Below, piece after piece: positions 284 through 46,846 of a stretch of DNA of 64,000 nt (position 1 is its first letter; every line of letters starts with the position of its first letter). The notes under the pieces are model-generated. The model did no database searches and was not told the DNA's origin. It saw only the letters and a program-made list of their open reading frames with translations. This stretch comes from Candidatus Aldehydirespirator sp. (GTDB lineage: Bacteria > Actinomycetota > Acidimicrobiia > Acidimicrobiales > Aldehydirespiratoraceae). The stretch lies in assembly GCA_965220645.1 (NCBI GenBank), contig OZ244836.1, forward strand, positions 660,075 through 724,074, written 5' to 3'. The position numbers and the translations under genes are program-made.

Positions 284-313
284 TTATGCGGGTGATCGGG
301 TCAAGTGGAGATG

Positions 314-2146
314 TCATGAGGCTTCCTCGTCGAGTCGGTGGAGGAGGCCGTCGAAGATCTTCTGGCGACCGATCTGGCCCTTGTCGGCGGCGTCGTCGCG
401 TTGGCGGCGCAGCGTTGGTTTGAACTCGATGGTGGTGACGAAGAAGTTGCAGGACTCGCAGATCGATTCGAAGTGGCAGTCCATCTCGACGGGTCGGGCG
501 CAGTAGCCGTTGCCGAGCATGCGCCGGTGCATCTCGGCACGGAGTTTGCGCATCTCGTTGCCTTCGTCGCTGGCGGGGAGCTGGTGGGGTTGGTCGTAGA
601 GGGCCTCGACCTTGTCGGTGACGGCGAAGTACTCGTCAGCGACGGTCTTGTCGGCGATGCGGGCGTAGACCATGGTCATGGCCAAGGTCTTGTGGCCGAG
701 CAGGGCGGCGATGGCCTCGAGGCTCATGCCCCGGTTGATGGCCTGGGTGGCGAGCGTGTGGCGGAGCTGGTGTGGGGTGACATGGCCGATGCCGGCGTTG
801 TTGGCGATCCGGGCGAGAGCGTTGGCGACGCGGAGCTTGGTGATGGGCCGTCCGCGTTCGAGTAGGAGCCGGTCGCTGCGCAGGCCGCTGGGGCGATGGT
901 TGTCGATCCAGGCGTCGAGCAGGGTCTTGAGGTCGGGGTGCAGCGGGATGTAGCGGTCGTTGTGGAGCTTGCCGACCGGGATCCGAAGCCAGAACGCGGA
1001 GCCGATCTGCACGACGGCGTCGACGGTGAGGCCGATCAGTTCGCTGAGACGGATGCCGGTGCGGGCGAGAATCTCGACGCAGAGCCTGGCGAGCGGGTCG
1101 GGTTCGGCTCGGGTCGCTCGGGCGAGCTTGGCTGCTGCGGCGTCGTCGAGGAACCGGGGCAGGGGTCGGTCGATGCGGGGCAGGTCGCCGGCGAACAGCA
1201 GCGGCTTGGTCGGCGCGTTCGGGTAGCCCCAGTTCGTGGTGCGTTCGAAGAAGCAGCCGAGATTGATCAGCTGTTCCTTGACCGACGTGCGCGCCAGCGG
1301 TTTGGCGGTGCGGGCGCTCGGGGTGGTCGAGATCCAGATCTTGAAGTCCTCGATGTGGCCGCGTTCGAGCTCCGCGCAGGAGCGGATCTCGCGATGGTGG
1401 CCGGCCAGCCAGGTCCCGAAGACACGCAGGTGCTGTTCGATGTGCTTGACCGTCGACGGGCGCAAGCTCAGGCGGACCTGCTCGATGTAGCGGTGTGCGT
1501 TGTCGCGGTAGAGCTGCGGGATCGGGTCCCAGCCCGAGACGGTGACCGAGGGCTTCGATGCTGGTCGGGCAAGCGAGTCGATCTTGCCGGCGTGGAACAA
1601 GGTCAGCTGCAGCCGGTGCAGGACCGCCCGCACGTTGCGCCCCGCCTCGGGCCGGCCCCGACGCTTGTAGGCCTCGGCGATTTGGGCCCGGGCCGCGACG
1701 AACGCGTCGGTGTCGACGCAATCGGGGCGGCATCGGGACATGGCGGCGATCTTGCACACAGCGTTCCATTGCGACGCTGTGTCCTGGGCGGTCGCGTCGA
1801 GCCTGCGGGTCGCGGAGACGAACCATTCATGCACCTCGGGGAGGTGCTTTCGGGCGGTGAGCCCGATCCGTAGATCGGCGAAGGCCAAGAACTCGGCGGT
1901 GGCGGTGAGCCGGCCAGTCACCAGCTGCCAAGCCACGAACGGTCGGGCCCGGCGCATCCACTCGAGCTGCGTGTCGAGGTTCACCCGCTCCCAGCCGCCC
2001 GCACCTTCGATGCGGCCCTGGAAGGTGCGAGCCGCGCGCAGCGTGGAATCCCACGCCTTGAGCCCGACGGTCTCGAGTGCCGCCGCGAACGCGTCGAGGC
2101 CGTCGATCGACTCGTCGGTGAGCACCAGCGCTGCGGGCATCACCAC
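314..2146 (-). CDS. Large tyrosine recombinase (TnpB-of-Tn554-like) with C-terminal Cys4 motif, element A
   Basis: TGIRLSE, GK, HQLRH, LGH, TMVY catalytic motifs; GYCARPVEMDCHFESICESC tail. Confidence 0.9.
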   Translation of the reverse strand: MVMPAALVLTDESIDGLDAFAAALETVGLKAWDSTLRAARTFQGRIEGAGGWERVNLDTQLEWMRRARPFVAWQLVTGRLTATAEFLAFADLRIGLTARKHLPEVHEWFVSATRRLDATAQDTASQWNAVCKIAAMSRCRPDCVDTDAFVAARAQIAEAYKRRGRPEAGRNVRAVLHRLQLTLFHAGKIDSLARPASKPSVTVSGWDPIPQLYRDNAHRYIEQVRLSLRPSTVKHIEQHLRVFGTWLAGHHREIRSCAELERGHIEDFKIWISTTPSARTAKPLARTSVKEQLINLGCFFERTTNWGYPNAPTKPLLFAGDLPRIDRPLPRFLDDAAAAKLARATRAEPDPLARLCVEILARTGIRLSELIGLTVDAVVQIGSAFWLRIPVGKLHNDRYIPLHPDLKTLLDAWIDNHRPSGLRSDRLLLERGRPITKLRVANALARIANNAGIGHVTPHQLRHTLATQAINRGMSLEAIAALLGHKTLAMTMVYARIADKTVADEYFAVTDKVEALYDQPHQLPASDEGNEMRKLRAEMHRRMLGNGYCARPVEMDCHFESICESCNFFVTTIEFKPTLRRQRDDAADKGQIGRQKIFDGLLHRLDEEAS

Positions 2147-3177
2147 TCCCCGAACACCTCGGCGTCGATGGCTTCGGTCGCCCGGCGATACTCACCGGCG
2201 AGCCAATCGTTGGCCAAATGCAGGTAGATCCGTGTCGACTCGATCGATCGATGCCCGGCCTGGGCCTGGATCGCCTCGAGCGCCATGCCCGCCTCCCGCA
2301 GCCGGGTGAAACACGTGTGCCGCAACTGGTGACAGGTCAACGCCTCGATCCCGGCCCGGCGGCGGGCGCCGGCCACGATCTCGTCGAGCCCCGCAGCGCT
2401 CAGCGGCCGGCCCCGGCGAGGGCCCTTGAGCACAACGAAGATCCGATCGGTGTCGGCCTCCTCGGGCCGTTCGTCGCACAGATAGGCCGCCAACGCGTCG
2501 AAGAACCGCGACGAGACCGGCACGACCCGCTGGTGACCGCCCTTGCCGTCGGCGATGAACACCCGTCGCTCCCCGGCGTTGATGTCTTCGAACCGCAGCC
2601 CAAGAACCTCACAACGACGCAAGCCTCCCAACAGCATCGCGTCGACCATCGCCCGGTCCCGATGCTTGCGAAGCGCGCCGGTGAACGCATCGACCTCGGC
2701 CGGGTCGACCACCCGCGGGAGCATCCGAGGGGTCCTGATCAACGGCACGCCACGCACCGCCCGCTGGCCACCTCGACGCGATGCCAACCCCTTCGGCACC
2801 GGATTCGATGCCACGTCACCACGCACGATCAGATAGTCATAGAGCCCCGCGAGGGTGGCCAACCGACGCTTGATCGTCCGTGCTGACAGACCCGACTCGC
2901 CATCCTCGATCCGGACCACGTTCCCCGCCACGCGGGGCTGACGCTGCACCGAGATGAACTTCAACACATCGACGGCGACGACATCGACAGGGTCCGCGTC
3001 AACGATCGAGAAGAACACCTTCAGGTCATAGGCCTGGGCCAGCAGCGTGTTCCACCGCGCACGCGCCGCCACCAACTCCAGATACGCATCAACAAGCGGA
3101 TGCCCGAGCCGGATCAGCTCGCGGCCAGCGCCGTCCTCGAACCGGTCAAACGATGGACCGAACGCCACCTCACCCAT
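2140..3177 (-). CDS. Small tyrosine recombinase (TnpA-of-Tn554-like), element A
   Basis: GLRRCE, GKGG, HQLRH, AGH, TRIY motifs; overlaps the downstream recombinase. Confidence 0.9.
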   Translation of the reverse strand: MGEVAFGPSFDRFEDGAGRELIRLGHPLVDAYLELVAARARWNTLLAQAYDLKVFFSIVDADPVDVVAVDVLKFISVQRQPRVAGNVVRIEDGESGLSARTIKRRLATLAGLYDYLIVRGDVASNPVPKGLASRRGGQRAVRGVPLIRTPRMLPRVVDPAEVDAFTGALRKHRDRAMVDAMLLGGLRRCEVLGLRFEDINAGERRVFIADGKGGHQRVVPVSSRFFDALAAYLCDERPEEADTDRIFVVLKGPRRGRPLSAAGLDEIVAGARRRAGIEALTCHQLRHTCFTRLREAGMALEAIQAQAGHRSIESTRIYLHLANDWLAGEYRRATEAIDAEVFGEW

Positions 3178-3225
3178 CGTCGCAGCACTCCTGGGCCCCG
3201 TGGTGGATCACCCGCATATCGTGAC

Positions 3226-3344
3226 CCGATCAGCCATTCGAAGATCGACCGGCGCGCTGCGGCGCGGTCGGGGTAGCTGTGGCGGTGGACGAGCTCTCGT
3301 TTGAGCGTCGAGAAGAACGCCTCGGCCACGGCATTGTCTGCTGA
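3226..3344 (-). pseudogene. IS3-1 OrfB middle piece carrying the catalytic E
   Basis: SADNAVAEAFFSTLKRELVHRHSYPDRAAARRSIFEWLI. Confidence 0.9.
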
Positions 3345-3397
3345 TTATCCGGCCAATCGCGGTCGGGGGTGAAGCGAGGTGTCGTGGGCCCGGTCGG

Positions 3398-3706
3398 TCA
3401 GATGGCTTTGCGGCGGGGTTGGCGGCGTTCGATGTGGCGGAGCCGTTCTTCTTGGTTTCGGACTCGGTCGGCGAGGGCTTCGAGCCCGGTGCGGAGGTGG
3501 GCGATTTGGGTGGCGAGTCCGGTGAGGGTGTGGGGGTCGTGGCTGTGGCTGCGGTGTTCTTCGACGACGGCTCGGAGCTGCGGGTTGCGGTAGAGGGTGG
3601 TGCGGCTGATGCCGGCGTGGTCGGCGACGGCGGTGAAGGTGATTGCTTGGCCGTTGTGGGCGAGGCGGGCGCAGGCGGCTTCGACGGCTTCGATGTTGGT
3701 GTTCAT
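3398..3706 (-). CDS. TnpC-like (DUF6262-like) HTH/coiled-coil protein, 102 aa
   Basis: MNTNIEAVEAAC...ITFTAVADHAGISRTTLY; ATGA overlap with the upstream recombinase; this is the real tail of the 729-aa track ORF. Confidence 0.8.
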   Translation of the reverse strand: MNTNIEAVEAACARLAHNGQAITFTAVADHAGISRTTLYRNPQLRAVVEEHRSHSHDPHTLTGLATQIAHLRTGLEALADRVRNQEERLRHIERRQPRRKAI

Positions 3707-5673
3707 GCGGTGTCGGCGATGAGTGTGTCGAGGCGGTCGAGGAGGCGTCGGTGCCGGTCGGCTTCGTCGATCCAGCCGCGTGTTTGGGCGTCGGCGATGA
3801 GTGCTTGGGTGTCGACGCGCTGCGCGGCTAGCACGGCAATGGAGGCGGCGTCGGTGCGGAAGCTGGGGCAGTGCTCGCAGATGTTGGCGTAGGGGCAGGC
3901 TCCCTGGGCGGGGGCGCGTAGGCAGTGGCCTCCGGCGAGGCGCGCTTTGATGGCCGGCGCGTCGCGCCAGTCGTCGCCGGAGGTGCAGCCGTTGGCGCGG
4001 CCGTCGTTGGCGGTGACGGGGATCGATGGCCGGCCCGTCGGTGTAGGCATGGCGCCGATGCGGCCTTTGGCGAGGTCGAGGGCGCGTTCGTATTCGGCGC
4101 GGACGGTGGAGTCGAAGAGGTGCGCGTAGCGCAGGCTCATCTCGGCTGAGACGTGGCCGAGGAGGGCCATGAGCGCTTGCAGCGAGACGCCGGCGTTGAC
4201 TAGGGCGGTGGCGTAGGTGTGGCGGAGCTGGTGGGGGGTGACGTGACCGATCCCGGCAGTGTTGGCGCTGCGGGCCAGTTCGGTGCGCACCGCGGTTTGG
4301 GAGAGTCGTCGTCCGTGGTGGGTGAACAGGAACTGGGTCGGCCGGCCGGTGCGGGGGTGTGGCAGCGGTTTGCCGGTCGATCGTGTGGCGGTGATCCGGT
4401 CGATGAGGGCGACGGTCTCGTCGTCGAGGGGGACCATGCGCTCGGTGTCGAGCTTGCCGAGCGGGACCTTGAGCCAGGCGCCGTGGCCGCCGATCTCGTG
4501 GACGCAGTCCAACTCGAGGTCGAGGAGCTCTCCGATGCGCAGCCCGACGGCCCGGGCCAACAGCAGGGCGTCGGCGGCGAGCCGGTAGGTGGAGGCTTCG
4601 AGCGCTTCGGTGAGGCGCCGGTCGGCGTCCACGGGCAGATAGCGGGGCAATGGCCGCGGTTGGCGGGGATGGTCGGACCGGAAGACCAGCTTGCGGGCGG
4701 GGGCGTCTTCCCAGCCCCACTCGGTGATCTCTGCGAGCATGTGGCCCACAGCGCGGATGCGGCGGTCCTGGTCGGCGACGGTGATCGCCTGCCCGGTCTT
4801 CGATGACACTGCGCTCGCGACGGAGTTCAGGTAGGGCTCGATGTGGCGTTGGCGGTCCAGCGCGGCGAGCGACTCGAGTTCGGGGTCGTGCTCGGCGAGG
4901 AACCGGCCGAAGCAGGCGAGGCGGGTGGCGAGGCTCGAGACGGTCTTGGGTCGACAGGTGCCGCGCTTGCGTTCGAGGTAGGCGGCCATGGCGGAGCGCA
5001 GGTTCGGGCGGCAGTCGGCCAGGCGGGCCTCGAAGCTGTCCGGCTGCTGTGGGGGCTCGGGTGGTTGGGCGACGATGTCGAGGTGGAACAGCACCGTGTG
5101 GGCGCACACGAGCGCGGTCCTGTAGTGCCGCCAGCCCTGCCCGGTCGCAGCCTCGCGTGCCCGGCACGCGTCGGCCAGGGCCTCCAGGTCGCCGATGGCC
5201 AACTGCTCCAGTGGGCGTCCGGTCTGGATCAACAGCCGGCCGACCGACTGCGACGCGGCCCGTTTCGCCTGAATCTCGCTGAACCCGACCGCTGCCGCCG
5301 TGTCGCAGAACCGGCCCATGTCGGCCTCGAGCGGCGAGTCGCAGATCTCGCGCCAGAAGCTCGAGAGCTTGCGTGACACCAGCCAGTCCCAGCCCGGCTG
5401 CAGCCACCTGTGGGCCATCAAGAACATCAGCAGCGACATCGTCGAGGGCGCCAGCACCAGCCGGGCGCCGAGGGGTTGGTCGGCCCAGGCCTGCGGGTTG
5501 GGCCAGCGGTCCAGGAACGTCCGGGCCGCCAAGTCCGAGGCCGGGTTCCCTCGGCCGGTGGCGCGCTGGCGGTCCCGCCACGCCCACAGCAGCTGGCCCG
5601 GTGCTGGGACCGGTGACGGTTCAGGTGTTGGCGCGTTGGCGGCGGCGGGCAGCATCGAACTCGGCCTTGACAT
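3703..5673 (-). CDS. Large tyrosine recombinase with Cys4 tail, element B1
   Basis: GLRIGE, LGK, HQLRH, LGH, SLRY; GHCLRAPAQGACPYANICEHC; start uncertain. Confidence 0.9.
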   Translation of the reverse strand: MSRPSSMLPAAANAPTPEPSPVPAPGQLLWAWRDRQRATGRGNPASDLAARTFLDRWPNPQAWADQPLGARLVLAPSTMSLLMFLMAHRWLQPGWDWLVSRKLSSFWREICDSPLEADMGRFCDTAAAVGFSEIQAKRAASQSVGRLLIQTGRPLEQLAIGDLEALADACRAREAATGQGWRHYRTALVCAHTVLFHLDIVAQPPEPPQQPDSFEARLADCRPNLRSAMAAYLERKRGTCRPKTVSSLATRLACFGRFLAEHDPELESLAALDRQRHIEPYLNSVASAVSSKTGQAITVADQDRRIRAVGHMLAEITEWGWEDAPARKLVFRSDHPRQPRPLPRYLPVDADRRLTEALEASTYRLAADALLLARAVGLRIGELLDLELDCVHEIGGHGAWLKVPLGKLDTERMVPLDDETVALIDRITATRSTGKPLPHPRTGRPTQFLFTHHGRRLSQTAVRTELARSANTAGIGHVTPHQLRHTYATALVNAGVSLQALMALLGHVSAEMSLRYAHLFDSTVRAEYERALDLAKGRIGAMPTPTGRPSIPVTANDGRANGCTSGDDWRDAPAIKARLAGGHCLRAPAQGACPYANICEHCPSFRTDAASIAVLAAQRVDTQALIADAQTRGWIDEADRHRRLLDRLDTLIADTA

Positions 5674-6712
5674 GGGTGGGGGCCAGATGGACGTAGCGGG
5701 CGGTGGTGTCGATGTGGGCGTGGCCCAACAGGGCCTGCATCACGGCCAGGTCCACACCGGCCTCGGCCAAAGCGGTGCCGAAGGTGTGGCGCAAGGCGTG
5801 GGGATGCGCGGCCGTGATGCCGGTGATCTCGCGGTGATAGCGGAAGATCCGCCGCAGCCCCGCCGCGGTGAGCGGCTGCCCGCGGGTGGGGCCCTTGGCC
5901 ACGACGAACAGCCTGGCGCTGGTCGTCTCGGGGCGCTCGGCGAGCAGGTAGGTCCCGATCACCCCGGCGACGTCCACGTCGAGGGGGACCCGGCGCTCGG
6001 TGCCGCCCTTGCCCGACACCCGCAGCCATCGGGCGCCGATGTCGGCATCGGCGACGTCGAGGGCCAACACCTCCGACGAGCGCAGCCCGCAGAACACCAT
6101 CAACCCGGCGGCGGCCCGGTCCCGCCACGTGCGCAGGCTCTCCAGCAGCGCCACGACTTCTCGGTGCTCGAGCGTCTTCGGGAGCCGCTTGGCGTCGCGG
6201 ACCCGCAACGGCGAGCGCCGCCGCGGCGCACGCGACACGTGCGCGAGCATCCCGCCGCGCTCACCCGCCGACGCCCGCCTGGCCTCGCGGCCCGCAGGCA
6301 TCGGGTTCGGCGCGTCCGGGTCGCGCATCGACCGGAACGAGAACAACCCCGACACCGCCGCCAAGCGCAAGTTGATCGTGGCCGCAGACAACGTGTCGGT
6401 CCGGCGGCCGTCGAGCCCGACCACGTTCGCACCGCCGGGCCGGCCAGCGACCCGCTCACTGCGGCACGCGGCCAAGAACCGCAACAACACATCCGTCGTG
6501 ACCTCGCCCAGATCCAAGTCCTCGTCGCCGAGCCAGCGGCAGAACGCCAACAGCCCGAACCCATAGGTGCGTATCGTGCGAGGCGAGTAGTTCCGGTCAA
6601 CCAGATACGACAGGTAGTCGTTCACCAACCCGAACCGACCGGCGCCGGCGCCGGCGAGCTGCCAGCCAACCCCAGTCCGCTCAAGGAACAACCCACCATC
6701 CGGCACGGCCAC
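5621..6712 (-). CDS. Small tyrosine recombinase, element B1
   Basis: GLRSSE, GKGG, HALRH, LGH, TARY. Confidence 0.9.
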   Translation of the reverse strand: MAVPDGGLFLERTGVGWQLAGAGAGRFGLVNDYLSYLVDRNYSPRTIRTYGFGLLAFCRWLGDEDLDLGEVTTDVLLRFLAACRSERVAGRPGGANVVGLDGRRTDTLSAATINLRLAAVSGLFSFRSMRDPDAPNPMPAGREARRASAGERGGMLAHVSRAPRRRSPLRVRDAKRLPKTLEHREVVALLESLRTWRDRAAAGLMVFCGLRSSEVLALDVADADIGARWLRVSGKGGTERRVPLDVDVAGVIGTYLLAERPETTSARLFVVAKGPTRGQPLTAAGLRRIFRYHREITGITAAHPHALRHTFGTALAEAGVDLAVMQALLGHAHIDTTARYVHLAPTHVKAEFDAARRRQRANT

Positions 6713-6808
6713 ATATGTAACGCCCAGCGAACCCTAAGGCAAGCATTTCCCAGTACCAACAGCCAATCAGGAAGCAAGCACCAGATCCGATTGGCCGGTT
6801 AACAGGCA

Positions 6809-7489
6809 GGACCCGACCCGGCCGGCTGACTGGTTCATGCCCCATGACCTCACGCTGTTCTTGAACGCCTTGGCCTGGTAGTTGCTGCCGCGATCGGAAT
6901 GGAACACGATGCCTGCGGTGCGGCCCCCGCGGGCCGCGCCAGCCATGTCGAGGGCGTCTTGGGCCAAGCGGGTGTCGATGCGGTCGCTCATCTGGTAGCC
7001 GAGCAGCCGGCGGCTGCCCAAGTCGAGCACGACCGCGAGGTACAGCCAGCCCTCGCCGGTGCGGATGTAGGTGATGTCTGACACCCACGCCCGATCGGGG
7101 GTCCCCGGAGCGAAGTCCCGTCCCAGCAGGTCCGGGAGTGTCACAGCCGTGCGGGCTGGGATGGTGGTGCGCTTGGGCCGCCGGCGGCGGATCCCCGCTA
7201 TCTGGTGGACTCTCATGAGCCGCTCGACGCGTTTGCGGTTCACCACACGCCCTGCGGCGCGCAGCTGCGCGGTCACCCTCGGCGACCCATAAGCGCCACC
7301 CGAGCCGGCATGCGCCCGGCGGATCGCCCCGAGGAGGTCCGCCTCGGCGAGATCACGCTCGCTGGGACCCGCGGCGTGCCTGGCGCGCCAGTCATAGAAC
7401 GCCTGACGGCTCACTCGGGCTGCCTCACAGCACAGCGTGGTCGGGAATCCCTCGGCCCTTCGGGCAGCCACCCACCGGAAACGGGTCAC
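6809..7489 (-). pseudogene. IS3-1 OrfB N-terminal part
   Basis: YGSPRV, WVSDITYI, FHSDRGSNY, ending at SAGRVGS. Confidence 0.9.
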
Positions 7490-7502
7490 TGTCCCAACTC
7501 CC

Positions 7503-7817
7503 TCACCCAAAAGCCGTCGCTCGTTTGAGCAACTCACGCTCCTGGCGCAGCCGAAAGTTCCCCCGGCGCAGCTCGGCCAGCTCGGCCCGCTCGCTGGTCG
7601 TCACTCCCTCGCGCTCGCCGCGGTCGATGCGCGCCTGGCGCACCCAATTGCCCAGGTTCGTCGCCCCGATCCCCAAACTGCGCGCCACCGACGCAACCGA
7701 ACGGCCCTCATCGAGCACCAACGACACCGCATCAGCCTTGAACTCAGCCGTGAACGATCTTCGCGACCGGCCCGGCGGCAACACCGGCCCAGCACGCTGC
7801 CTTTCCATAGTTGACAT
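7503..7817 (-). CDS. IS3-1 OrfA (HTH)
   Basis: RRSFTAEFKADAVSLV...VARSLGI...LGNWV plus leucine-zipper-like tail. Confidence 0.88.
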   Translation of the reverse strand: MSTMERQRAGPVLPPGRSRRSFTAEFKADAVSLVLDEGRSVASVARSLGIGATNLGNWVRQARIDRGEREGVTTSERAELAELRRGNFRLRQERELLKRATAFG

Positions 7818-10673: not shown

Positions 10674-10935
10674 CGTCCAGTTCTGGCGAGACCTGAGGGT
10701 GTCTGCGACCGTCTCGCACCCTGAGCCGGCCAGCGCTACGGGCTGAGCCTCAGATGATCCGGCGTCTCGAGCCTGATCCGGTGTCAGCGGTCTTTTGCCT
10801 GTTCAGCAGGTATTTCTTGCAGGGCTGAAGAAAAAGTCTCGCCGATTCCCGGGAATCTTGCCGGTGACAAAATCCTGCAACATTCCATTCCTACCGTGCG
10901 CAGCATCACGAAATTCTCACGAAAGGAGTGGAAGC

Positions 10936-12474
10936 GTGATTGGCAGAATGCTAAAGACGAAAAAGTTCCTGATCGGGTCGGTGCTGGGAGCTGTTCTCGG
11001 CGCCGGGATACTGGTCGGCTGCGCCGACGACCCGAACGAAGGCCGCTCCGGCGGGGAGAGTGCCGGTGAGCACGGCTCCGCCGGCGAGGGCGGCACCGAA
11101 GGCGGCGGCGAGTCCGGCGGCGGAGGCGAGGAGGGCAGCGCAGCAATGCTGGCTCCCGACCAGATCTTCGACGCGGTCCGCGGCGGCGCCCAGCTGGTGA
11201 TGGGCTACGACTCCACCAACAACTCCTTCACGGGCACGGTGGCCAACACCACCAACGGGCCCCTGACCCGAGTCCGCATCGAGGTGCACCTGGACAACGG
11301 GACCGAGCTGGGCCCGACCACTCCGGCGGATCTCGCTCCCGGCGAGGTGATGGCGGTCAACCTGCCCTCGACGCAGGCTTCGTTCACCGGCTGGGTCGCC
11401 CATGCTGAGGTCGGCGGTGGCGAGGGCGGCGGCGAGCACGGCGGCAGCGGCGGCGAGTCCGGTTCTGAGGGTGCCGAGGGCGCTGACGGCGAGTCCGGTT
11501 CTGAGGGTGCCGGCGGCGAGGGCGGCTCAGAGAGCGCCGGCGGCGAGAGCGGCGTCGAACTCAACGAGGCCGCCATGTCAAGCCCGGTCGTGCCGCTGAA
11601 CCAGACCTGGGACGGGACCCTGGGTCCGTTGGCGGTGTCGGCCTGGTACGACCAGGCGACCCAGACGGTGCACTCCACAGTGCAGAACACCAGCTCCCAG
11701 ACCCAGTGCTACGTGCAGGCCGAGCCTCACCTGAAGTCGGGAACGACCACGGTGGGGGAGCTGGGCCCGGACAAGCTGGGCGATCTGGCCCCGGGCCAGC
11801 AGGCGACCACGAGTGTGGCGCTGGCCACTGAGCCGGCGCTGGCAGGAGTGGCCTTCGACGGCTATGTCGTGCACATGGAGGTCTTCGACTGCGCCGGCCC
11901 CGGACCCCAGCCCCACACCGCTGAAGGCGGCGGCGCCGAGGGCGCCGGAGGCGAGGGCCACGGCGCCGGCGGCGAGGGCGGCTCAGAGAGCGGCACCGAA
12001 GGTGCAGAGTCCGGCGGTGGCGGTGAGGAGGGCAGCGGCGCCAACGCCCTGGCGCTGGATGCGACCTTCGACCAGACCCGCAACGGCGCCCGGCTCGTCA
12101 TGGCCTATGACCCGGCCACCAACACCTTCAACGGCACCGTCATCAACACCACCAACAACACCTTGACCCGAGCCCGGGTGGAGGTGCACCTCACCAACGG
12201 CGTCGAGTTGGGCCCGACCACCCCGGTGAACCTGGCCCCGGGCCAGAGCGTGGCCATCAACCTGGACGTCACCCAGGCCTCCTTCACCGGCTGGACGCCC
12301 CACGTCGAGGTCGGCAGCGGCGAGGGCGGCGGCTCCGGCACCGAAGGCGCCGGCGAGCACGGCGGCAGCGGCGGTGAGTCCGGCTCAGAGGGCGGCGGCG
12401 AGTCCGGCTACGACAGCGGCACCGAGGGTGCCGGCGAGCACGGCGGCAGCGGCGGTGAGTCCGGCTCCGGCTAG
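10936..12474 (+). CDS. Lipoprotein with three repeated (FxLYD-like) beta domains and Gly/Glu/His-rich linkers
   Basis: AAGGAG SD before GTG 10936; lipobox ILVGC; domains 1 and 3 clearly paralogous; GGESGSEGAGEHGG repeats. Confidence 0.8.
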   Translation: MIGRMLKTKKFLIGSVLGAVLGAGILVGCADDPNEGRSGGESAGEHGSAGEGGTEGGGESGGGGEEGSAAMLAPDQIFDAVRGGAQLVMGYDSTNNSFTGTVANTTNGPLTRVRIEVHLDNGTELGPTTPADLAPGEVMAVNLPSTQASFTGWVAHAEVGGGEGGGEHGGSGGESGSEGAEGADGESGSEGAGGEGGSESAGGESGVELNEAAMSSPVVPLNQTWDGTLGPLAVSAWYDQATQTVHSTVQNTSSQTQCYVQAEPHLKSGTTTVGELGPDKLGDLAPGQQATTSVALATEPALAGVAFDGYVVHMEVFDCAGPGPQPHTAEGGGAEGAGGEGHGAGGEGGSESGTEGAESGGGGEEGSGANALALDATFDQTRNGARLVMAYDPATNTFNGTVINTTNNTLTRARVEVHLTNGVELGPTTPVNLAPGQSVAINLDVTQASFTGWTPHVEVGSGEGGGSGTEGAGEHGGSGGESGSEGGGESGYDSGTEGAGEHGGSGGESGSG

Positions 12475-14768: not shown

Positions 14769-16055
14769 GTGATCGACCCGATGCCGCCGGCCGCGGTCTG
14801 CGTTCTCCCCTGGGACGGGCCCGTTGCCGACACGGTCGAGGCGATCGGTCAGGCCCGGGCGGATTGCGGCGACACGTTCGTGGTGGACAGCGGTGAGGAT
14901 CGCTACCTGTTCCTGTTCTCGGAGGCGGGACTGCACAGCTTCTACACCGTGCCCGAGACGCAGGCCAGCAAGGGCATCGCCGATTGCAGGATGCTGCGCC
15001 GCAAGCTCCCCGACGAGCTGTTCGCGGGGCGCCGCACCCTGCCCCACGAGCTGTTCGGCCGGGTAGCGGTGGCCGGCTACCTCGACGCGCTCGAGGAGGC
15101 GATCTCACTGCAGCTCGCAGAGCTGAGCCCCGGCTGCGAGATCGAAGTGTTCGACTTCTCGCGGCGGCTCGGGCACCGGCTGGGCTTGGCGAGCTGGGCC
15201 GGTCGGGAGGTCCTGCGATCAGCCCGGTTCGACGAGCTGGTGGCGGCGCTGGACGCGCTCGACGGGGCCGAAGCGTTCGTGTCGCCGGAGCGGATGCGTG
15301 AGGTGGCTCTCACCGACAAGGCCGCCGAACGGCAGGCGATGGCCCGAGCCGAGGAGATCCTGGCCGAGTCGATCGGCGCGCGGGTCGAGCCCGGTGACGA
15401 CCTGCTGGGCACCACCATCCGGCGATGGGACGACACCGCGGCAGCCGACAGAATGACCGGCATCGCCCGTGACGTGATTCTGGTGCACATCGGGTCGATG
15501 TCGAACCTGTTCGCGGCGCTGGGCTGGTCGCTGGTGCACCTGGTGCAGCATCCCGACGTGCTGGCGCGGCTGCGCGGCGGATCGGATCGGGGCGCCGACG
15601 CCGAGCTGGCGTCGCGCTGCGTGCTGGAGTCGATACGCATCGCCCAGCGCTCCATCATGCTGCGCACAGTGCTGGAACCGGCAGTCATCGACGACGGCTC
15701 GCAGGCCTACCACGTGTCACAGGGGGCCACGCTGGCGACGTTCCTGCCGCTCACCAATCTCGCCGGCGCGCCCGGACTCGGCTCCTACGACCCCGACCGC
15801 TGGCAGGGCCGCCACCTCATCTCGCCCGCCGGACTGCCGGCGGAGGCCATCACGACCTTCGGCCACGGCCCGCACACCTGCCCGGCCCGGCCGTTCTCGG
15901 TGACGGCGATGGTGCGAGTCATCGAACGACTCTTCGGGTCCTGTGACCTGCAGCGCCGATTCGACGATGCCGTGCCGCGGCCCGGTCAGATCGGCGGTGT
16001 CGCTCGCGCCGCCGCGCCCTGCAACGTCGTGGTCACACCGCGCGCACCCGCCTGA
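14769..16055 (+). CDS. Cytochrome P450 (atypical I-helix)
   Basis: ESIR (ExxR), YDPDRW, FGHGPHTCPAR heme motif. Confidence 0.9.
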   Translation: MIDPMPPAAVCVLPWDGPVADTVEAIGQARADCGDTFVVDSGEDRYLFLFSEAGLHSFYTVPETQASKGIADCRMLRRKLPDELFAGRRTLPHELFGRVAVAGYLDALEEAISLQLAELSPGCEIEVFDFSRRLGHRLGLASWAGREVLRSARFDELVAALDALDGAEAFVSPERMREVALTDKAAERQAMARAEEILAESIGARVEPGDDLLGTTIRRWDDTAAADRMTGIARDVILVHIGSMSNLFAALGWSLVHLVQHPDVLARLRGGSDRGADAELASRCVLESIRIAQRSIMLRTVLEPAVIDDGSQAYHVSQGATLATFLPLTNLAGAPGLGSYDPDRWQGRHLISPAGLPAEAITTFGHGPHTCPARPFSVTAMVRVIERLFGSCDLQRRFDDAVPRPGQIGGVARAAAPCNVVVTPRAPA

Positions 16056-16096
16056 GCGGGCGAGCCTGCCCCGAGACGAAGGCCGACTCGGTGGCC

Positions 16097-16203
16097 GGTC
16101 GCGTCGCTGGGGGGCGCCGGACTCGGTCGGCTGGTCGCGTCGCTGGGGGGTGCCGGACTCGGTCGGCTGGTCGCGTCGCTGGGGGGTGCCGGACCCGGTC
16201 GGT
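16097..16203. repeat. Three tandem 36-bp repeats
   Basis: GGTCGCGTCGCTGGGGGGTGCCGGACTCGGTCGGCT at 16097, 16133, 16169; no spacers. Confidence 0.9.
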
Positions 16204-16720
16204 TGCGCCTGTCGATTCGCGGCCACGATCACGAACTCGATCGGCGCAGCGCCACATACTCTGCTACAAGAATGTTCTCGTGTTGGTTATTGTTTGTTGG
16301 TTTGACCCACCATCGGTTGCCTTTGGTGTCGTGAGCGAGAAACACCCCTGATTTCCCGAAGGTTTTTTCAGGGCCTGTTCGGGCGAGTTGAGGCACGCTG
16401 GGGATGGAAGCGGGTCGGCTTCCGGCTATGCGTCCACTCCAGTTGGCCCTGGGCGGTGAACTAGCCACGGGACCCAGGGGCCGTTACGGCGTGTGTCAGC
16501 GGCCCTGCTGACTCATGCAAAGTTCTGTTGCATCGATGATCGAGCTTGATCGGCAAGAGATAATGCATCATCTTGAATGATGTGCTGGACTCAGATGATG
16601 TTTGCAGGCTTCGCCAGCAGTCGAACGAACAGTTACCGGGTTGGCGCTGGGAACAGGCGCACATTGGAGTCTCAAAAGGGTGGTGTGCCCTGTGTTTCGC
16701 GCGGTCGGGTTGTTTGAATC

Positions 16721-16924
16721 TCAGGCTGTGTTGGCGTGGCGGATCTCGTATTCGACGGGTGTGAGCATGCCGAGTGATGAGTGCCGCCGTTGCCGGTTGT
16801 GGAAGATCTCAAGGTACTCGAATATGGCGTTGGATAGTTCCAGGCGGGTTCTCCAGCGCCTTCGGTTGAGCAGCTCGACTTGCATGCGGGCCCAGAACGA
16901 CTCGATGACGGCGTTGTCGAAGCA
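16721..16924 (-). pseudogene. IS3-2 OrfB C-terminal piece
   Basis: CFDNAVIESFWARMQVELLNRRRW...IFEYLEIFHNRQRRHSSLGMLTP. Confidence 0.9.
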
Positions 16925-16977
16925 TTATCCGGCCAATCGCGGTCGGGGGTGAAGCGAGGTGTCGTGGGCCCGGTCGG

Positions 16978-28135: not shown

Positions 28136-28158
28136 CCCCGACCCCCAAGGCCGGTTAA

Positions 28159-28646: not shown

Positions 28647-28659
28647 TTCAGTGCATGAT

Positions 28660-28815: not shown

Positions 28816-28837
28816 ACCTACGAAAGGCAACGACATC

Positions 28838-29884: not shown

Positions 29885-29921
29885 CACATAGGAGAGATGG
29901 GACGCCCCCCAGACTTGTAAG

Positions 29922-41567: not shown

Positions 41568-41592
41568 GGCAGCGTCCCATCTCTCCTATGTG

Positions 41593-42639
41593 TCAAGCAG
41601 CTAGGAGTTGGGGGTCCTGGAGGTGGGCGGCGTCGGCGTTGAGGGCTCGGTAGACGACGTCGGAGAGTCGGCGTTTGAGGACTCTCATGGCTTCTTTGGT
41701 GGTGTTGCCGCCGGTGGTTCGCCGGTCCAGCAAGCGGCGTGCTGGGGGGTGGTTGCTGGCCTGGGTGAGCGCGATGCGGTGTATGGCGGCGTTGAGTTGG
41801 CGGTTGCCGGCTCGGCTGAGTCGGTGCCGGTGGGTGTTGGCAGACCAGACCGGCAGCGGGGCGGTGCCGTTGTGGCGGGCGTATGCGTGCCGGGAGCGGA
41901 ACCGGCCGATGCCGGCGGTCTCGCCGATGATCTTGGCTGCTGTGAGCGGGCCCACGCCGTGCACTGAGCGCAGGTTCGGCGCGGCGTGGGCGGTTCGGGC
42001 GTCGAGTTCGTCGCCGAGGCTGGCGATGATGGCGTTGAGGCTGCGGATTCGCTCGATGATCTCTGCGGCGATGCGCGCCACGACTGTGTCGAGGCCCTGG
42101 ACGCGCTTGTGGGCGGCGTCGAGGTGCTTGCGGGTCGTCAACGCGCCCGCTGGAGGGTCGAATGCGGGGTCGATGTCATGGAGGTGCCAGCGCAGCCGGT
42201 TTATGCAGCGTGTGCGCTCGGCCACGAGGTCATCTCGGTGATCGACCAGCAGCCGGATCTCCCGGGAAGCAGCGTCGAGGTGCGCGGCGGGAAGATCGGG
42301 CTCGCGCTGCGCGGCGCGGGCCACCGCGAGCGCGTCTATGGGGTCTGACTTGCCATAGGTGCGGGCCGCGTCGCGGGCGTGGGCCATCAGCTTGGGCGGG
42401 ACCCGCACGATGCGCTCGCCTGCTGCGAGCATGTCGGCCTCGAGGCGGCGCGACAGCTGCCGGCAGTCCTCGACTGCCCAGGTGCGCTCCGCTCCGAACC
42501 CCTGTGCCCAGCCGATCAGCGCCCGATGATCGGCGGTGGTGGTGCCACCGGTGGTGCGGCAGCCGAGCTGGCGGCCCAGCTCGTCGACCGCGACAACAGT
42601 GTGGGTGCGCTTGTGCGCGTCGATTCCCAATGTGATCAT
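41593..42639 (-). CDS. IS110 recombinase, type 2b
   Basis: Differs from copy a by only a few residues. Confidence 0.95.
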   Translation of the reverse strand: MITLGIDAHKRTHTVVAVDELGRQLGCRTTGGTTTADHRALIGWAQGFGAERTWAVEDCRQLSRRLEADMLAAGERIVRVPPKLMAHARDAARTYGKSDPIDALAVARAAQREPDLPAAHLDAASREIRLLVDHRDDLVAERTRCINRLRWHLHDIDPAFDPPAGALTTRKHLDAAHKRVQGLDTVVARIAAEIIERIRSLNAIIASLGDELDARTAHAAPNLRSVHGVGPLTAAKIIGETAGIGRFRSRHAYARHNGTAPLPVWSANTHRHRLSRAGNRQLNAAIHRIALTQASNHPPARRLLDRRTTGGNTTKEAMRVLKRRLSDVVYRALNADAAHLQDPQLLAA

Positions 42640-42661
42640 GATGTCGTTGCCTTTCGTAGGT

Positions 42662-42817
42662 GAACGGTGCAAGGACCGGTCGGCGGGCACAGCTCAGTGG
42701 GGGCGATGCCACGCTCCTATCAAGCCACACCGGCCGGTCCGCATCGTGTCGCCGGCCGCAAGACGGGACCTGGCCATGACGGCATCGAGTGGTAGAGCGA
42801 GCCGGCAACACCCGCCA
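42662..42817 (-). ncRNA. Putative bridge RNA of IS110-2b
   Basis: Same as copy a except in the left target guide and one base next to the right donor guide. Confidence 0.75.
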
Positions 42818-42934
42818 ATCATGCACTGAACCGAGTGGTGGAAATTGAGGTAGGCGTGGGGGTCCACCTGTAGGGGGCCATCGGCGTGATCCTCGGTGAG
42901 AAGTAGTCACCGACTCATCGAGGAGGACACACCG

Positions 42935-43715
42935 ATGACCCTGTCTGATACTGCCACAGCGCAGCTGTGGGAGACCTTCCGCGCCGGAGGTGGCGCGGAG
43001 TTGATCCGCGACGCGGTGGAGCTGGTGCTCCAAGAGCTGATCGAGGCCGAGGCGGCCGAGGCGATCGGCGCGGGCCGCTATGAGCGCAGCGAGCACCGCC
43101 GCACCGAGCGCAACGGGCACCGCGGCCGCTTGTTGGCCACCCAGGCGGGGGATGTGGAGCTGAAGATCCCCAAGCTGAGAAAGGGCAGCTTCTTTCCGTC
43201 GATGCTCGAGCCTCGCCGGCGCATCGACAAGGCGCTGTACGCGGTGATCATGGAGGCCTATGTGGCTGGGGTGTCAACGCGCTCAGTCGATGACCTGGTG
43301 GCCGCTTTGGGCGCGGAGTCCGGCATCTCGAAGTCGGAGGTGTCGCGTATTTGCGCCGGGCTCGACGAGACGGTGGAGGCGTTCCGTTCCCGCCGCCTGG
43401 ACCACATCGAGTTCCCCTACGTCTATCTGGACGCGACCTACCTCAATGTGCGCAACAGCGTCGCCCAGCCGGCGTCGATGGCCACCGTCGTGGCCACCGG
43501 GATCACCGCTGACGGCAACCGGGAGGTGCTGGGCTGCGACGTCGGCGACAGCGAGAGCGAGGGGTTCTGGCAGCAGTTCCTGTCCTCGTTGCGCGACAGG
43601 GGCCTCACCGGCGTGCGGCTGGTCATCTCCGACGCGCACCGCGGGCTCGGCGCAGCCGCCGACCGCTGGTTCCAAGGAGCCGCCCGACAGCGCTGTCGGG
43701 TGCATTTCATCCGCA
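42935..43715 (+). pseudogene. IS256-2 transposase N-terminal part
   Basis: IPKLRKGSFFPS, YLDATY, QRCRVHFIR. Confidence 0.92.
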
Positions 43716-43738
43716 TTAACCGGCCTTGGGGGTCGGGG

Positions 43739-45700
43739 TCAACTGATGGTTCGGTGGCGGGTGGTTGTGAGGTGCTGTTCGAGGTGTTCGATGACTCGGT
43801 CGTGGCGGGCGACCTCGTCGGTCCAGCCGCGTTGGTGGGCGTCGTCGCGAAGGGTGCGGATGTCGTCGAGTTGTTCGGCGATGACGGGTTCTCGGGCGGG
43901 GTCGGGGACGAAGTTGTCGCATTGTTCGCAGATGTTCGAGTAGGTGCAGGCGCCAGCGAGTGGGTCGCGTGAACAGAAGCCGTGTGCGACGCGGGTCTTG
44001 ATCATTTCGGTGTGGAGCCAGTCGACTTTGGCGGGGATTGCGGTGGTTCGGCCGGCTGGGACGACGAAGATGGGGCGCCGGGCGCGGACCTTGTCCATCG
44101 CGGTGTCATAGGCGGCTCGCACGGTGGGCGAGGCGAGCTGCGCGTAGCGCAACGTCATTTCGGGGGTGACGTGGCCGAGCAGCGCCATCAGCGCGGGCAG
44201 TGACATGCCGGCGTTGACGAGTTCGGTGCCGAAGGTGTGGCGGAGCTGGTGGGGCACGACTCGCAGTGGTTGCTTGCCGGGGCCGGTGAGCCCGGCGATG
44301 TTGACGGCGTCGTGGAGTCCGCGTCTGATCCGATGCGCTCCGGGGCGACGCCCGCGTTCGGTGAACACGAAGTCGCAGAGGCGTCCGTCGCGTGGATGCG
44401 GAAGGGGTCGTTGCCGGTCGCGGTTCTTGATCCAGGCGTCGAGCGCGGCGAGTGGTCCGGGGTCCAGCGGCACCATTCGTTCGGTGCCGAGCTTGCCGAT
44501 TGGGACTTTGAGCCAGGTGCCGTGGGTGCCGAAGGTGACGAGGCAGTCGAGTTCGAGATCCAACAGTTCACCGATGCGCATCCCGGTGGCTCGCAGCAAG
44601 ATGATCCCGGTTCTGGCGAAGTCGTCATCGAGGTGTTCGACGGCGGCCATCAGATCGCGGTCGACGTCGCGTGGGAGCGCGCGTGGGAGGGGTTCGGGCA
44701 GGCGGGGCAGATCGGCGAGGAAGAACAGCCGGCGGTTGGGTTGGCTGGCCCATCCCCATTCGGTGATGTCCTCAAAGAAGACGCGCAGGTCGACCACATC
44801 GTGGTGGAACTGGGTTGGCGACACGGTCCGCCCGCGACCGTTGTTGCCGCGACATGGCCGGGTTCGGGCCCAGGCGATGAACGGTTCGATGTGGACGTTG
44901 CGGTCGAGTTGATCGAGCCGTTCGATGTCGGGGTGGTGGTCGGCGAGCCAGTCGCACAGGACCCGGATCGACTTGACCCGCATCTGCACCGTTGACGGTC
45001 GCAGCACCGTGGAGATCGTCTCGGCATAGCGGACCACCTCGCGGGCGATCGCGGGTTGCGGGATCGTGGCTGCGTGTTGCGCAGCGTTCCGTGCCGGTGG
45101 TTGGCCGAGGCGGGGTGCGACGTGGCAGATGCCGAGCTGAAAGCAGACGTGATGCAGCGAGAACAGGCGCGTCTTCAACCGGGTCCGCGCAGATGCCGTC
45201 ACGGCGGGACTGTCATCAAGCTCGGCAACGATCGCGTCGAAGTCGGCGTCGTCGAGATCGTCGATGGCCTTGTTGGCCCACACACAGATCATCGACGCTG
45301 CCAGGATCACAACCTGGCGGGTCCAGTTCTTGCTCCATCCGAGCCCCAACGCCATCTGTTCGGCTCGGGCGACGTCGTCGGGGTGAGCGGCGGCCCACAC
45401 CGACGGCAGATCGCAGCCGGCCGGTTTGGTGAGCAGCAGCTCGAGATCGGGTCGCCGTCGGCCCGACACGAACAGCCACGTCGCGAACGGCCATGCCTTC
45501 ACCCGGCGCAGATCCGCCAACCGGGCAACCGTCGGGCGTTGCATCCACACGCCCAGGTCCCGATGCACGCTCATGAACCGGCGAGCCCGATACACACGAT
45601 CCCGCCGAGCACCAAGCGTGATCGACAACGCCGCGACGTGGGCTTCGTAGTCGGCCAACACATCGACGGCCGTTTCCCCAGAGGCGACCGCAGCGATCAT
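43739..45700 (-). CDS. Large tyrosine recombinase, element C2
   Basis: Same translation as C1. Confidence 0.9.
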   Translation of the reverse strand: MIAAVASGETAVDVLADYEAHVAALSITLGARRDRVYRARRFMSVHRDLGVWMQRPTVARLADLRRVKAWPFATWLFVSGRRRPDLELLLTKPAGCDLPSVWAAAHPDDVARAEQMALGLGWSKNWTRQVVILAASMICVWANKAIDDLDDADFDAIVAELDDSPAVTASARTRLKTRLFSLHHVCFQLGICHVAPRLGQPPARNAAQHAATIPQPAIAREVVRYAETISTVLRPSTVQMRVKSIRVLCDWLADHHPDIERLDQLDRNVHIEPFIAWARTRPCRGNNGRGRTVSPTQFHHDVVDLRVFFEDITEWGWASQPNRRLFFLADLPRLPEPLPRALPRDVDRDLMAAVEHLDDDFARTGIILLRATGMRIGELLDLELDCLVTFGTHGTWLKVPIGKLGTERMVPLDPGPLAALDAWIKNRDRQRPLPHPRDGRLCDFVFTERGRRPGAHRIRRGLHDAVNIAGLTGPGKQPLRVVPHQLRHTFGTELVNAGMSLPALMALLGHVTPEMTLRYAQLASPTVRAAYDTAMDKVRARRPIFVVPAGRTTAIPAKVDWLHTEMIKTRVAHGFCSRDPLAGACTYSNICEQCDNFVPDPAREPVIAEQLDDIRTLRDDAHQRGWTDEVARHDRVIEHLEQHLTTTRHRTIS

Positions 45701-46746
45701 CGCTGCACCGCCCGAACCCGCGACCACTCCGCAGCGATCGTCTCCGCGTTCGGGTGCACATACGCGGCGGTCGTTTCGGCGTGCGCGTGCCCCATCAGGT
45801 CCCGCAGCACCAACAGATCCATCCCCGCCGCGGCGAGCTCGGTCCCGAACGTGTGCCGCAGCCGATGCGGTCGCACCCGCTGGGCACCGGAACGAGCCCG
45901 ATGCGTCCGGAACACCCGCCGCAACCCGGCCTCGCTCATCGCCTGCCCGGTCGTCGGACCGCGCAACACCACGAAACACTCCGGTGTAGTCAGCCCAGCC
46001 GGTCGCTCCACACGCAGATATGAACCCAACTCGGTGAAGAACGCCCGATCCACAGGCACCGTTCGCTGCTTGCCGCCCTTGCCGGTGACAGTCACCTGTC
46101 GCATCCCGACATCGATGTCGGCCAAACGCAGCGACCGCACCTCCGACGCGCGCAGGCCGCCGAGCAACATCAACAACACCACCGCCCGGTCACGATGACG
46201 GTCCAGATCGGCCAAGAACACCGCGACCTCGCCGGCCGGCAAACTCTCAGGCAACGGACGTGCCTGACGCACCAGCCGACCATCGGAACCCGAACGACGG
46301 CCACCAACATGGCCGAGCATCCCGCGGCGAACCTGGCGCAGCCCGCCCGAGCGTCGAGGCGACGGCACCGGATTCACCTCGACCTCGCCGCTCATCACCA
46401 AGTAGTCGAACAAGCCACGCACCGCCGCCACGCGACGGTTCATCGTCGACGCCGCCGCGCCACGACGCTCCTGCAATCGGACCACCCGACGGCCAGCCGT
46501 CGGCACCGCAGCGGACTGCCACGCCAGCCAATCGAACAGGTCCATCGCCACCACATCAGCCACCGCAATCGACCGATCCTCAAGGAAACGGGCCAAGTTC
46601 AACGCATCGAACGCATACGCCCGAACCGTTCGCGGTGAGAACTCACGGACCTCCAGATGCGCCAGCCACCGATTCGCCAGACCGACCACATCGCCACCAC
46701 CGACCAGACGGTGACCGCCATCGACGACCGCTACCCGCAACCCCAT
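45697..46746 (-). CDS. Small tyrosine recombinase, element C2
   Basis: Same translation as C1. Confidence 0.9.
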   Translation of the reverse strand: MGLRVAVVDGGHRLVGGGDVVGLANRWLAHLEVREFSPRTVRAYAFDALNLARFLEDRSIAVADVVAMDLFDWLAWQSAAVPTAGRRVVRLQERRGAAASTMNRRVAAVRGLFDYLVMSGEVEVNPVPSPRRSGGLRQVRRGMLGHVGGRRSGSDGRLVRQARPLPESLPAGEVAVFLADLDRHRDRAVVLLMLLGGLRASEVRSLRLADIDVGMRQVTVTGKGGKQRTVPVDRAFFTELGSYLRVERPAGLTTPECFVVLRGPTTGQAMSEAGLRRVFRTHRARSGAQRVRPHRLRHTFGTELAAAGMDLLVLRDLMGHAHAETTAAYVHPNAETIAAEWSRVRAVQR

Positions 46747-46846
46747 CCGGGCCTCCTCGACCGAAGTCTCCACCCCCGACCAGCACCACGCGCGGACCCT
46801 CACGCCACCAGCCGAAGCCCGACCACCCAAGGCCGGTTAACGGAGA

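Follow-up and report, generated by a model that had tools for sequence, protein, structure and literature searches.

A 64,000-nt stretch of the genome of a Candidatus Aldehydirespirator sp. (contig OZ244836.1, positions 660075-724074; hereafter the window) contains five insertions of three small elements, A, B and C, each built around two tyrosine recombinase genes and each lying inside the transposase gene of an insertion sequence (IS). A, B and C are very probably cargo-free members of the Tn554 family, belonging to a wide, mostly actinobacterial radiation in which the words used for insertion encode conserved, often catalytic motifs of DDE transposases, with one word per recombinase clade. 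An earlier note on the window had described the elements as site-specific hyperparasites of IS elements. This description was borne out by the motif targeting found in relatives: since these also sit in transposase genes in many other bacteria, the elements behave as parasites of parasites. The genome (G000) comprises 3.59 Mb (3,545,664 + 41,050 bases) at 68% G+C, one extra contig of 41 kb included. The closest relatives of the window among named records were metagenome-assembled genomes (MAGs) of Acidimicrobiia (Ca. Aldehydirespirator and Ca. Poriferisodalis).

Structure and insertion sites of the elements

Element A (284-3225, minus strand, 2942 bp) is present as a single copy. Element B occurs twice (B1, 3345-6808, 3464 bp, and B2, 16925-20388, both on the minus strand), as does element C (C1, 25028-28158, plus strand, 3131 bp, and C2, 43716-46846, minus strand). 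B1 and B2 are base-identical, and C1 is the exact reverse complement of C2. Searches of the whole genome with the elements (blastn) and their proteins (tblastn) returned these five as the only full copies, so that the count of five insertions of three elements in the earlier note stands. Identical copies in different hosts and orientations, together with exact insertion relative to empty sites (below), identify the elements as mobile units. A 218-nt remnant outside the window (790651-790857 of the same contig), 83% identical to a stretch of the small recombinase gene of A, was the sole other trace of the family in the genome.

All five copies lie inside DDE transposase genes at conserved motifs, as the note had claimed (A, B1 and B2 in IS3-family genes, C1 and C2 in IS256-family genes; in the motifs below a slash marks the insertion point). 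A and B1 share one host, 119 bp apart: an IS3-family element on the minus strand (1-7800, end approximate) that runs off the start of the window, with orfB in three pieces (<1-283, 3226-3344 and 6809-~7540). The healed open reading frame (ORF) of 338 aa matches rve (82.1 bits) and HTH_21 (68 bits). A is inserted between ..WLIG and YNTHRLH of this protein, and B1 between ..GRVGS and SADNAVAE. B2 lies between ..SIGD and CFDNAVIE of a second IS3-family orfB, in a minus-strand element (16300-22700, limits approximate; rve 75.3 bits for 21861-22478) that is split both by B2 and by an IS30-family element. The hosts of C1 and C2 are two plus-strand IS256-family elements, at 24150-28635 (left limit approximate) and 42842-47320 (right limit approximate), whose genes match Transposase_mut at 301 and 309 bits and are 81-87% identical to each other. 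C1 splits its host at Transposase_mut position 257-259/379, and C2 uses the same codon; both lie at VHF-IR/N, in opposite orientations relative to the host gene.

Exactness of insertion was assessed by joining the flanks in silico. Open frames of 338, 435 and 413 aa were restored, in agreement with the claim that removal restores the frame. The chromosome also carries, elsewhere, three uninterrupted copies of the IS that hosts A and B1, so that empty and occupied copies of one IS coexist in the genome. The healed A and B1 junctions matched these three copies at 200/200, 200/200 and 198/200 nt. Nothing was therefore duplicated or deleted and the limits are exact, which confirms the claimed lack of a target duplication.

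The terminal inverted repeats are 14-18 bp long and start with TTA(A/T), the exception being one arm of A that starts with ATA. The earlier note had given them as 14-15 bp with a TTA(A/T) start. Read in gene direction, each insertion consists of host DNA, an element hexamer, the left inverted repeat, tnpA, tnpB (followed by tnpC in B), the right inverted repeat, an intact target hexamer and host DNA. Beyond the inverted repeat at the tnpA end stands the element-borne hexamer, which reads GTCACG in A, TGCCTG in B and TCTCCG in C (gene orientation). In A it occupies 3220-3225, outside the 14-bp repeats at 284-297 and 3206-3219; in B1 it occupies 6803-6808, with repeats at 3345-3359 and 6788-6802; in C1 it occupies 25028-25033, the left repeat running from 25034 and the right repeat ending at 28158. 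The coordinates in the earlier note were exact, with the amendment that each interval includes this hexamer.

Every element encodes a small (345-377 aa) and a large (610-656 aa) tyrosine recombinase, in adjacent, co-oriented genes that overlap or abut with no ORF between them. In A, the tnpB-like gene for the large enzyme lies at 314-2146 (minus strand, 610 aa with a Cys4 tail, Phage_integrase 98.6 bits) and the tnpA-like gene for the small one at 2140-3177 (minus strand, 345 aa, 114.8 bits). In B1, tnpB (656 aa) lies at 3703-5673 and tnpA at 5621-6712 (363 aa when read from a GTG, the start not being fixed), both on the minus strand; the corresponding genes of B2 are at 17283-19253 and 19201-20292. 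In C1, tnpA lies at 25044/25128-26177 and tnpB at 26174-28135 on the plus strand, both identified by Phage_integrase match and alignment. All six large ORFs matched Pfam Phage_integrase at 85-119 bits (cut-off 27.1), and NCBIfam also assigned them to the tyrosine recombinases. In an alignment of 45 diverse homologues the catalytic R, K, HxxR, H and Y of the large recombinases were invariant, as were four Cys in a C-terminal motif, C-x7/8-C-x5-C-x2-C. An AlphaFold2 model of B TnpB (mean pLDDT 78) predicts an all-helical N-terminal domain (~residues 25-200, modelled with confidence) together with core-binding and catalytic domains; the Cys4 stretch (residues 534-607) is modelled with low confidence. 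The pair of ~350-aa and ~610-655-aa recombinases with a Cys4 tail that the earlier note described is thus upheld by Pfam and alignment.

The claimed two-gene layout holds for A and C, which leave no room for a tnpC gene. B is not a two-gene element, because a third gene, tnpC-like, overlaps the stop of tnpB (3398-3706 in B1, minus strand, 102 aa; 16978-17286 in B2). Its product matches DUF6262 at 33.2 bits (cut-off 29). A table in a paper on Listeria labels DUF6262 as TnpC.

Target words in relatives of A, B and C

B-clade relatives were collected from genome contigs (79 loci, one genome per species, TnpB 51-94% identical) and plasmids (4 loci), giving 83 loci; in 71 of these the right end could be called and was followed by 15 nt or more of flank. 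A naive inverted-repeat finder returned chance pairs in about one-third of the loci; ends were then called by a clade-consensus search, and two were set by hand (left end of L034, right end of L078). The insertion lies two codons before the "DNA" motif of rve in 62/71 loci. In 59 of the 71 the right end is followed by NNNNNN and then GAY-AAY, which in frame encodes xx-D-N-(A/S/P)-..-E, the motif of rve to which the catalytic E belongs; the three further loci at this site carry a frameshift (L027), an Asn-to-His change (L069) or a mis-called end (L078). Left flanks read S-x-G-x-x-G-x, and Pfam rve was found in 34 of the 41 that were long enough to test. The rve domain is split by the insertion, for example at profile position 101/102, with separation of the catalytic residues. 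Six loci (L070, L071, L079, L081, L082 and L083) form a clade of their own and lie, in opposite orientation, at FFD/TTSTYFE of an IS4/IS1634-like gene; DDE_Tnp_1 was confirmed for the host of L081, and the other five hosts were read by motif.

All 62 B loci at rve are co-oriented with the host gene. Many B relatives lack tnpC, and loss of orientation control without TnpC was considered and dropped, since the tnpC-less members (~3.14 kb) are all still co-oriented with their hosts. B-clade elements measure 3122-3747 bp, with one exception of 5182 bp that contains an inserted IS. This exception, L002 on the Mycobacterium gilvum Spyr1 plasmid pMSPYR101 (NC_014811.1), is a B-type element split between tnpA and tnpB by the annotated IS1182-like ISMgi3; nesting therefore goes both ways.

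Spread of the inserts might be passive, with the host IS mobilised in trans, or gene conversion carrying the insert along, and recombinases that do no targeting. Flanks are indeed nearly identical in three pairs of loci (L009/L011, L081/L082 and L033/L034), and since the terminal repeats of an IS survive its interruption, mobilisation in trans is plausible and a probable contributor to the spread. As the main account it is very unlikely. The identical copies B1 and B2 lie in clearly different IS3-family genes, the identical copies C1 and C2 are oppositely oriented in hosts that are only 81-87% identical, and three copies of the IS that hosts A and B1 are empty. Among B sites with both flanks, 46/49 were non-redundant at 85% identity (B1 and B2 counted), and 46 such hosts could not arise by copying one composite. 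A single TnpB variant, identical in L007, L008 and L016, moreover occupies three different IS3-type hosts of one genome.

A-clade relatives came from a metagenome scan (80 loci, 54-80% identity; 67 with right end and flank). Motifs of rve, ISL3 or IS256 transposases hold 64/67 of them. The largest group (46/67) lies at W/YN..R.H near the C-terminus of rve proteins, always in the same orientation relative to the host gene (46/46). A further 16/67 lie at ISL3 GIDEIS/YKRG, 11 in one orientation and 5 in the other, and 2/67 at IS256 IW/SNNP.ER; three were unclassified, two of these resembling ISL3 sites. Right flanks of at least 45 nt were non-redundant in 54/65 cases, and left flanks (n = 24) matched rve in 15 cases, ISL3 domains in 3 and Transposase_mut in 1. 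Lengths of 50 A-clade elements were 2939-3052 bp. The DNA words of the three A-clade targets are alike (NTACAA or GTCCAA after TG or TC), and this likeness suggests that the elements read DNA rather than a protein family. At IS256 (for C) and at ISL3 (for A-type elements), insertions are found in both orientations. In three metagenome contigs (L196, L197 and L202) the two flanks of an A-type element are inverted copies of the same ISL3 gene half. This pattern could stem from chimeric assembly of insertions in opposite orientations, or from a genuine rearrangement between such insertions.

The earlier note had proposed, as a check, to ask whether copies elsewhere lie at IS motifs or at unrelated sites, and the counts for the B (62/71 at the rve word) and A clades (64/67 at three motifs) favour the former. 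They also bear on the possibility that insertion is random and that a survivorship filter keeps the copies that fall in dispensable IS genes of an IS-rich region. The window is such a region, an IS graveyard of IS3, IS30, IS256, IS110 and ISL3-type genes, several of them nested. A filter would nevertheless scatter the sites within genes, and 62/71 B loci share one codon register in 46 host sequences while 46/67 A loci share another; orientation relative to the host gene is likewise fixed at rve (62/62 and 46/46). Random insertion is already contradicted by the site register and is extremely improbable.

Whole-genome searches covered 401 genomes of the phylum, of which 17 had a C-type TnpB and 13 an A-type TnpB (G000 included). 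The longest ORF over the healed junction gave a GC-rich shadow frame in 4/8 loci; frames were then chosen by the junction motif and checked with Pfam. L085 and L086 lie at HFMR/N of Transposase_mut (profile position 259/379), and L087 and L091 were placed at the same motif by eye. L089 and the plasmid locus L129 lie at TTNP/IE, which for L089 is Transposase_mut position 337/379. L090 is in DDE_Tnp_ISL3 (~position 150/240), L094 immediately ahead of the ISL3 GVDE motif, and L092 in a Mu-type transposase. L103 and L075 lie at P/...GKIER, the rve match of L103 being weak (19.9 bits, below the cut-off). Sites read by eye were the IS30-type DPHS/ motif for L076 and YN..R.H for L111 and L122. A distant clade with a different inverted repeat (TTATGTGGACA-type end in L131 and L132) was found on plasmids of Arthrobacter, Shinella, Microvirga and Streptomyces. 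In this clade L133 interrupts a Tn3-family transposase at TDTGGAS/D (DDE_Tnp_Tn3 positions 181-183/389), and L134 adjoins a Tn3 transposase gene.

By target family, the words are xxDNA..E and W/YN..R.H in rve, HF.R/N and TTNP/IE in IS256, GIDE in ISL3, FD/TTS in IS4/IS1634-like, DPHS/ in IS30, P/..GK.ER in IS481/Mu-like and TDTGGAS/D in Tn3 transposases, together with one case in a LLGH/..RYA box of the tnpB of a sibling element. In this last case (L112/L098, contig C499 of genome G303, ~2400-2840) an A-type element lies within a C-type tnpB at LLGH/VSAEMTLRYA, the box of the catalytic tyrosine; here a family member parasitises a sibling element.

A FastTree phylogeny of 91 TnpB proteins was used to compare recombinase clades with targets. 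Target labels clustered by clade: the 22 changes compare with a mean of 30.5 after shuffling, and 0/200 shuffles gave a value as low. In this run L075 and L076 were mislabelled rve_xxDNA, which inflates the change count; L088 (genome G088) appears in the tree as a single, tentatively labelled row, on which no count or claim rests, and L093 (G148) was left unused. The grouping of targets by clade thus bears out the proposal in the note that different members read different targets. A profile-free search of 1.84 billion cluster representatives returned 412 relatives of B TnpB at E ≤1e-30, many of them fragments. Judged by these matches, the family is sizeable but not huge.

Several further features of the window surround the insertions. 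The IS30-family element in the same orfB as B2 spans ~20465-21924 (HTH_38 74 bits; rve weak). Its limits are taken from contig joints in public runs: in X16 and X18, 20464 is followed directly by 21925, so that the element is skipped, with only 21-25 nt on the shorter side. Two IS110-family copies, 98% identical (DEDD_Tnp_IS110 89 bits, Transposase_20 57.7 bits), lie at 28636-29905 (plus strand) and 41572-42841 (minus strand). Each borders directly on one IS256-family host of C, touching its terminal repeat at the outer tip (the right end of the first host, the left end of the second), and the same IS110 end faces the IS256 end at both. Their placement suggests that the IS256 terminal repeat is the target of a further, independent element. 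Two features are unrelated to the elements: a perfect 30-bp tandem array (~5 units, 57025-57183) within a 670-aa minus-strand ORF (55768-57780), and a 559-aa ORF (10795-12474) rich in degenerate Gly/Ala/Glu/Ser repeats.

Relation to Tn554 and other recombinase-based elements

Placement in the Tn554 family was examined by BLASTP against a tnpA-tnpB-DUF6262 module that lies beside a JAB-domain (RadC-like) gene on the Staphylococcus aureus plasmid NZ_CP096533.1. B TnpA is 28% identical over 336 aa to its 361-aa recombinase (E 1e-33), and B TnpB is 24% identical over 459 aa, Cys4 tail included, to its 637-aa recombinase (E 2e-37). No BLASTP similarity was found between B TnpC and the staphylococcal DUF6262 protein, which have only the Pfam family in common. 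We take the module to be Tn554-family from its gene content and its JAB neighbour; the record does not name one. The homology of TnpA and TnpB to this module bears out the Tn554-likeness claimed in the earlier note.

Window elements and the Tn554 family have in common the gene order (~360 aa, ~640 aa and, in B, a small DUF6262 protein), the Cys4 motif, a 6-bp junction unit and site-specific insertion inside a gene with no target duplication. In contrast to Tn554, Tn558 and Tn559, the window elements target DDE transposase genes rather than radC, carry no passenger gene and have clear terminal inverted repeats of 14-18 bp. Their hexamer is fixed per clade and not copied from the donor flank, tnpC is missing in A, C and many B relatives, and hosts of the window type are Actinomycetota and some Alphaproteobacteria, whereas the Tn554 family is one of Firmicutes. 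A TnCentral preprint describes the Tn554 family as small, Firmicutes-restricted and radC-specific, with circular forms reported, and Idola et al., 2023 (PMC10214605) place the known relatives of Tn554 in Staphylococcus and Enterococcus only.

The earlier note was not aware of a characterisation of this group, whose gene pair has in fact been described. Van Houdt et al., 2012 (PMC3414803) report actinobacterial Tn554-related tnpA/tnpB(/tnpC) sets, with a long recombinase of 611-828 aa and an ordinary one, on replicons of Rhodococcus, Mycobacterium, Streptomyces, Arthrobacter and Nocardioides; identical copies were seen on chromosomes and plasmids, and attB was left open. The plasmid hits of the present analysis fall in the same genera, and the window elements and the 2012 sets are almost certainly the same group. 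Since the gene pair was already described there, only the target specificity appears to be new. That paper, to the extent seen, defines gene sets rather than element ends or targets; the ends, the hexamer, the empty sites and the motif targets come from the present analysis. A full-text literature search (open-access papers and bioRxiv) found no paper on transposase-gene targeting by such elements. As far as checked, clade-specific homing into the DNA of DDE-transposase motifs, with an exact and possibly reversible break of the gene, is new.

Other recombinase-based elements are set apart by gene content. RIT elements are similarly small and cargo-poor, with only tyrosine recombinase genes and terminal inverted repeats, but they have three overlapping recombinases (ritA-ritB-ritC) of 315-410 aa and no long TnpB-like protein, against two in the window elements. 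In SE and GInt elements the core comprises four genes, one of which, between the two integrase genes, encodes a non-catalytic Tfp/GinC, and cargo is carried as well; the window elements have no intervening ORF. SEs also copy 6 bp from the donor flank. PMC10214605 reports an SE inserted in insJ of an IS3 element in E. coli, and states that its authors found no blastp similarity between SE and GInt proteins.

Homing into mobile DNA has precedents. IS4321/IS5075 insert in Tn21-type inverted repeats, Tn5053 elements are 'res hunters', integrative and mobilizable elements insert in genes of integrative and conjugative elements, and inteins and homing endonucleases occupy conserved motifs. In all of them the landing site is the best-conserved DNA of a target that is widespread, dispensable or mobile, with enzymes and targets other than those found here. 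To our knowledge, no described system targets the catalytic-motif coding DNA of DDE transposase genes over several IS families.

Probable mode of integration, host effects and wider meaning

Integration by the two recombinases would begin with the joining of the element ends into a circle, whose junction, with the right and left inverted repeats on either side of a fixed 6-bp spacer, would have the form of a classical tyrosine-recombinase core site. This core site would recombine with the target without need for spacer homology; run in reverse, the same reaction would leave the transposase gene exactly as it was. In the product, the tnpA side always carries the element hexamer and the opposite side the intact target hexamer. 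The element hexamer is constant within clades and is not a typical target hexamer; TGCCTG was found in 25/46 non-redundant B-clade sites and GTCACG in 21/55 A-clade left ends, and no swap between element and target hexamers was seen at any B or A site. A two-step exchange over a non-identical spacer, with heteroduplex formation, should give both arrangements. The fixed asymmetry is therefore probably better fitted by exchange of one strand pair at the tnpA-side boundary followed by replication.

Insertion breaks up the host transposase, separating for example the E of the rve triad from its second D, and the element therefore rides on a target that is multicopy, horizontally mobile and dispensable. 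Riding on an IS in this way may confer a fitness advantage (a 'safe harbour'). The exactness of removal, with restoration of the frame, and the separation of catalytic residues by the inserts (as at rve position 101/102) could alternatively be taken to mean that the elements are reversible off-switches for transposases, host-beneficial or IS-regulating, like the excisable sigK and nifD elements. As a primary function this is unlikely: nothing ties excision to a signal, empty and occupied copies of the same IS coexist, and a distribution over numerous unrelated IS families and hosts is what a selfish element should show. The switch is compatible with clade-specific homing by Tn554-family parasites, as a possible side effect of it.

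A number of observations weigh against such homing or limit its reach. No circle, excision or transposition was observed in the public runs (21 listed), which are available as contigs and are unable to show rare junctions. Comparison of X16, X18, X1 and X2 with window positions 16000-29000 gave relatives, loose ends matching the flank of the other copy, and the contig joints over the IS30-family element; a joint in X1 (25029>28196) resembles an uninterrupted related IS256 gene, with only 22 nt on one side. Comparison of element-junction and target consensuses by eye gave no convincing match of the kind expected for att-site mimicry. Metagenome and MAG loci are not independent samples, and L032, L058 and L061 (3/71 B loci), as well as L110 and L173, were without an assigned target. 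The fixed hexamer departs from the donor-derived 6-bp footprint that Tn554 relatives are reported to carry (PMC10214605), and details of strand exchange may differ from those of Tn554. In the distant clade, L131 and L132 (Arthrobacter and Shinella plasmids) gave no Pfam hit on their short flanks: L131 (~4.6 kb) interrupts a plasmid gene, and L132 adjoins dinB, in a frame that ends GFYE. L131 has apparent passenger genes, including one with a beta/gamma-crystallin domain, and so does L132, for which no right end was found within 3.3 kb. With apparent cargo and non-transposase sites in L131 and L132, the cargo-free, transposase-targeting habit fails for the family as a whole.

A bolder statement of the same idea is favoured by a modest margin over its negation. 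It holds that a large, overlooked radiation of the Tn554 family consists of dedicated parasites of DDE transposons, which would recognise clade-specific 15-25-bp words in active-site or invariant-motif DNA and integrate with strand bias and without spacer homology, keeping their own hexamer. Their exact and reversible knock-outs would make them natural IS suppressors that travel on the IS elements they disable.

For the Tn554 family, these findings extend a group seen as small, Firmicutes-restricted and radC-specific to a broad one in Actinomycetota that reaches Alphaproteobacteria and differs in ecology, its members being hyperparasites of insertion sequences and of Tn3-type transposons. The relatives provide dozens of natural recombinase-target pairs in which closely related enzymes use different DNA words, so that the site choice of TnpA and TnpB, and the roles of the long N-terminal domain and Cys4 tail of TnpB, become testable by comparison and domain swaps. 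For annotation, many 'pseudogenised' transposases of Actinomycetota are genes interrupted by 3-3.5-kb units. For IS population dynamics, exact and reversible disabling of transposases could damp IS expansion.

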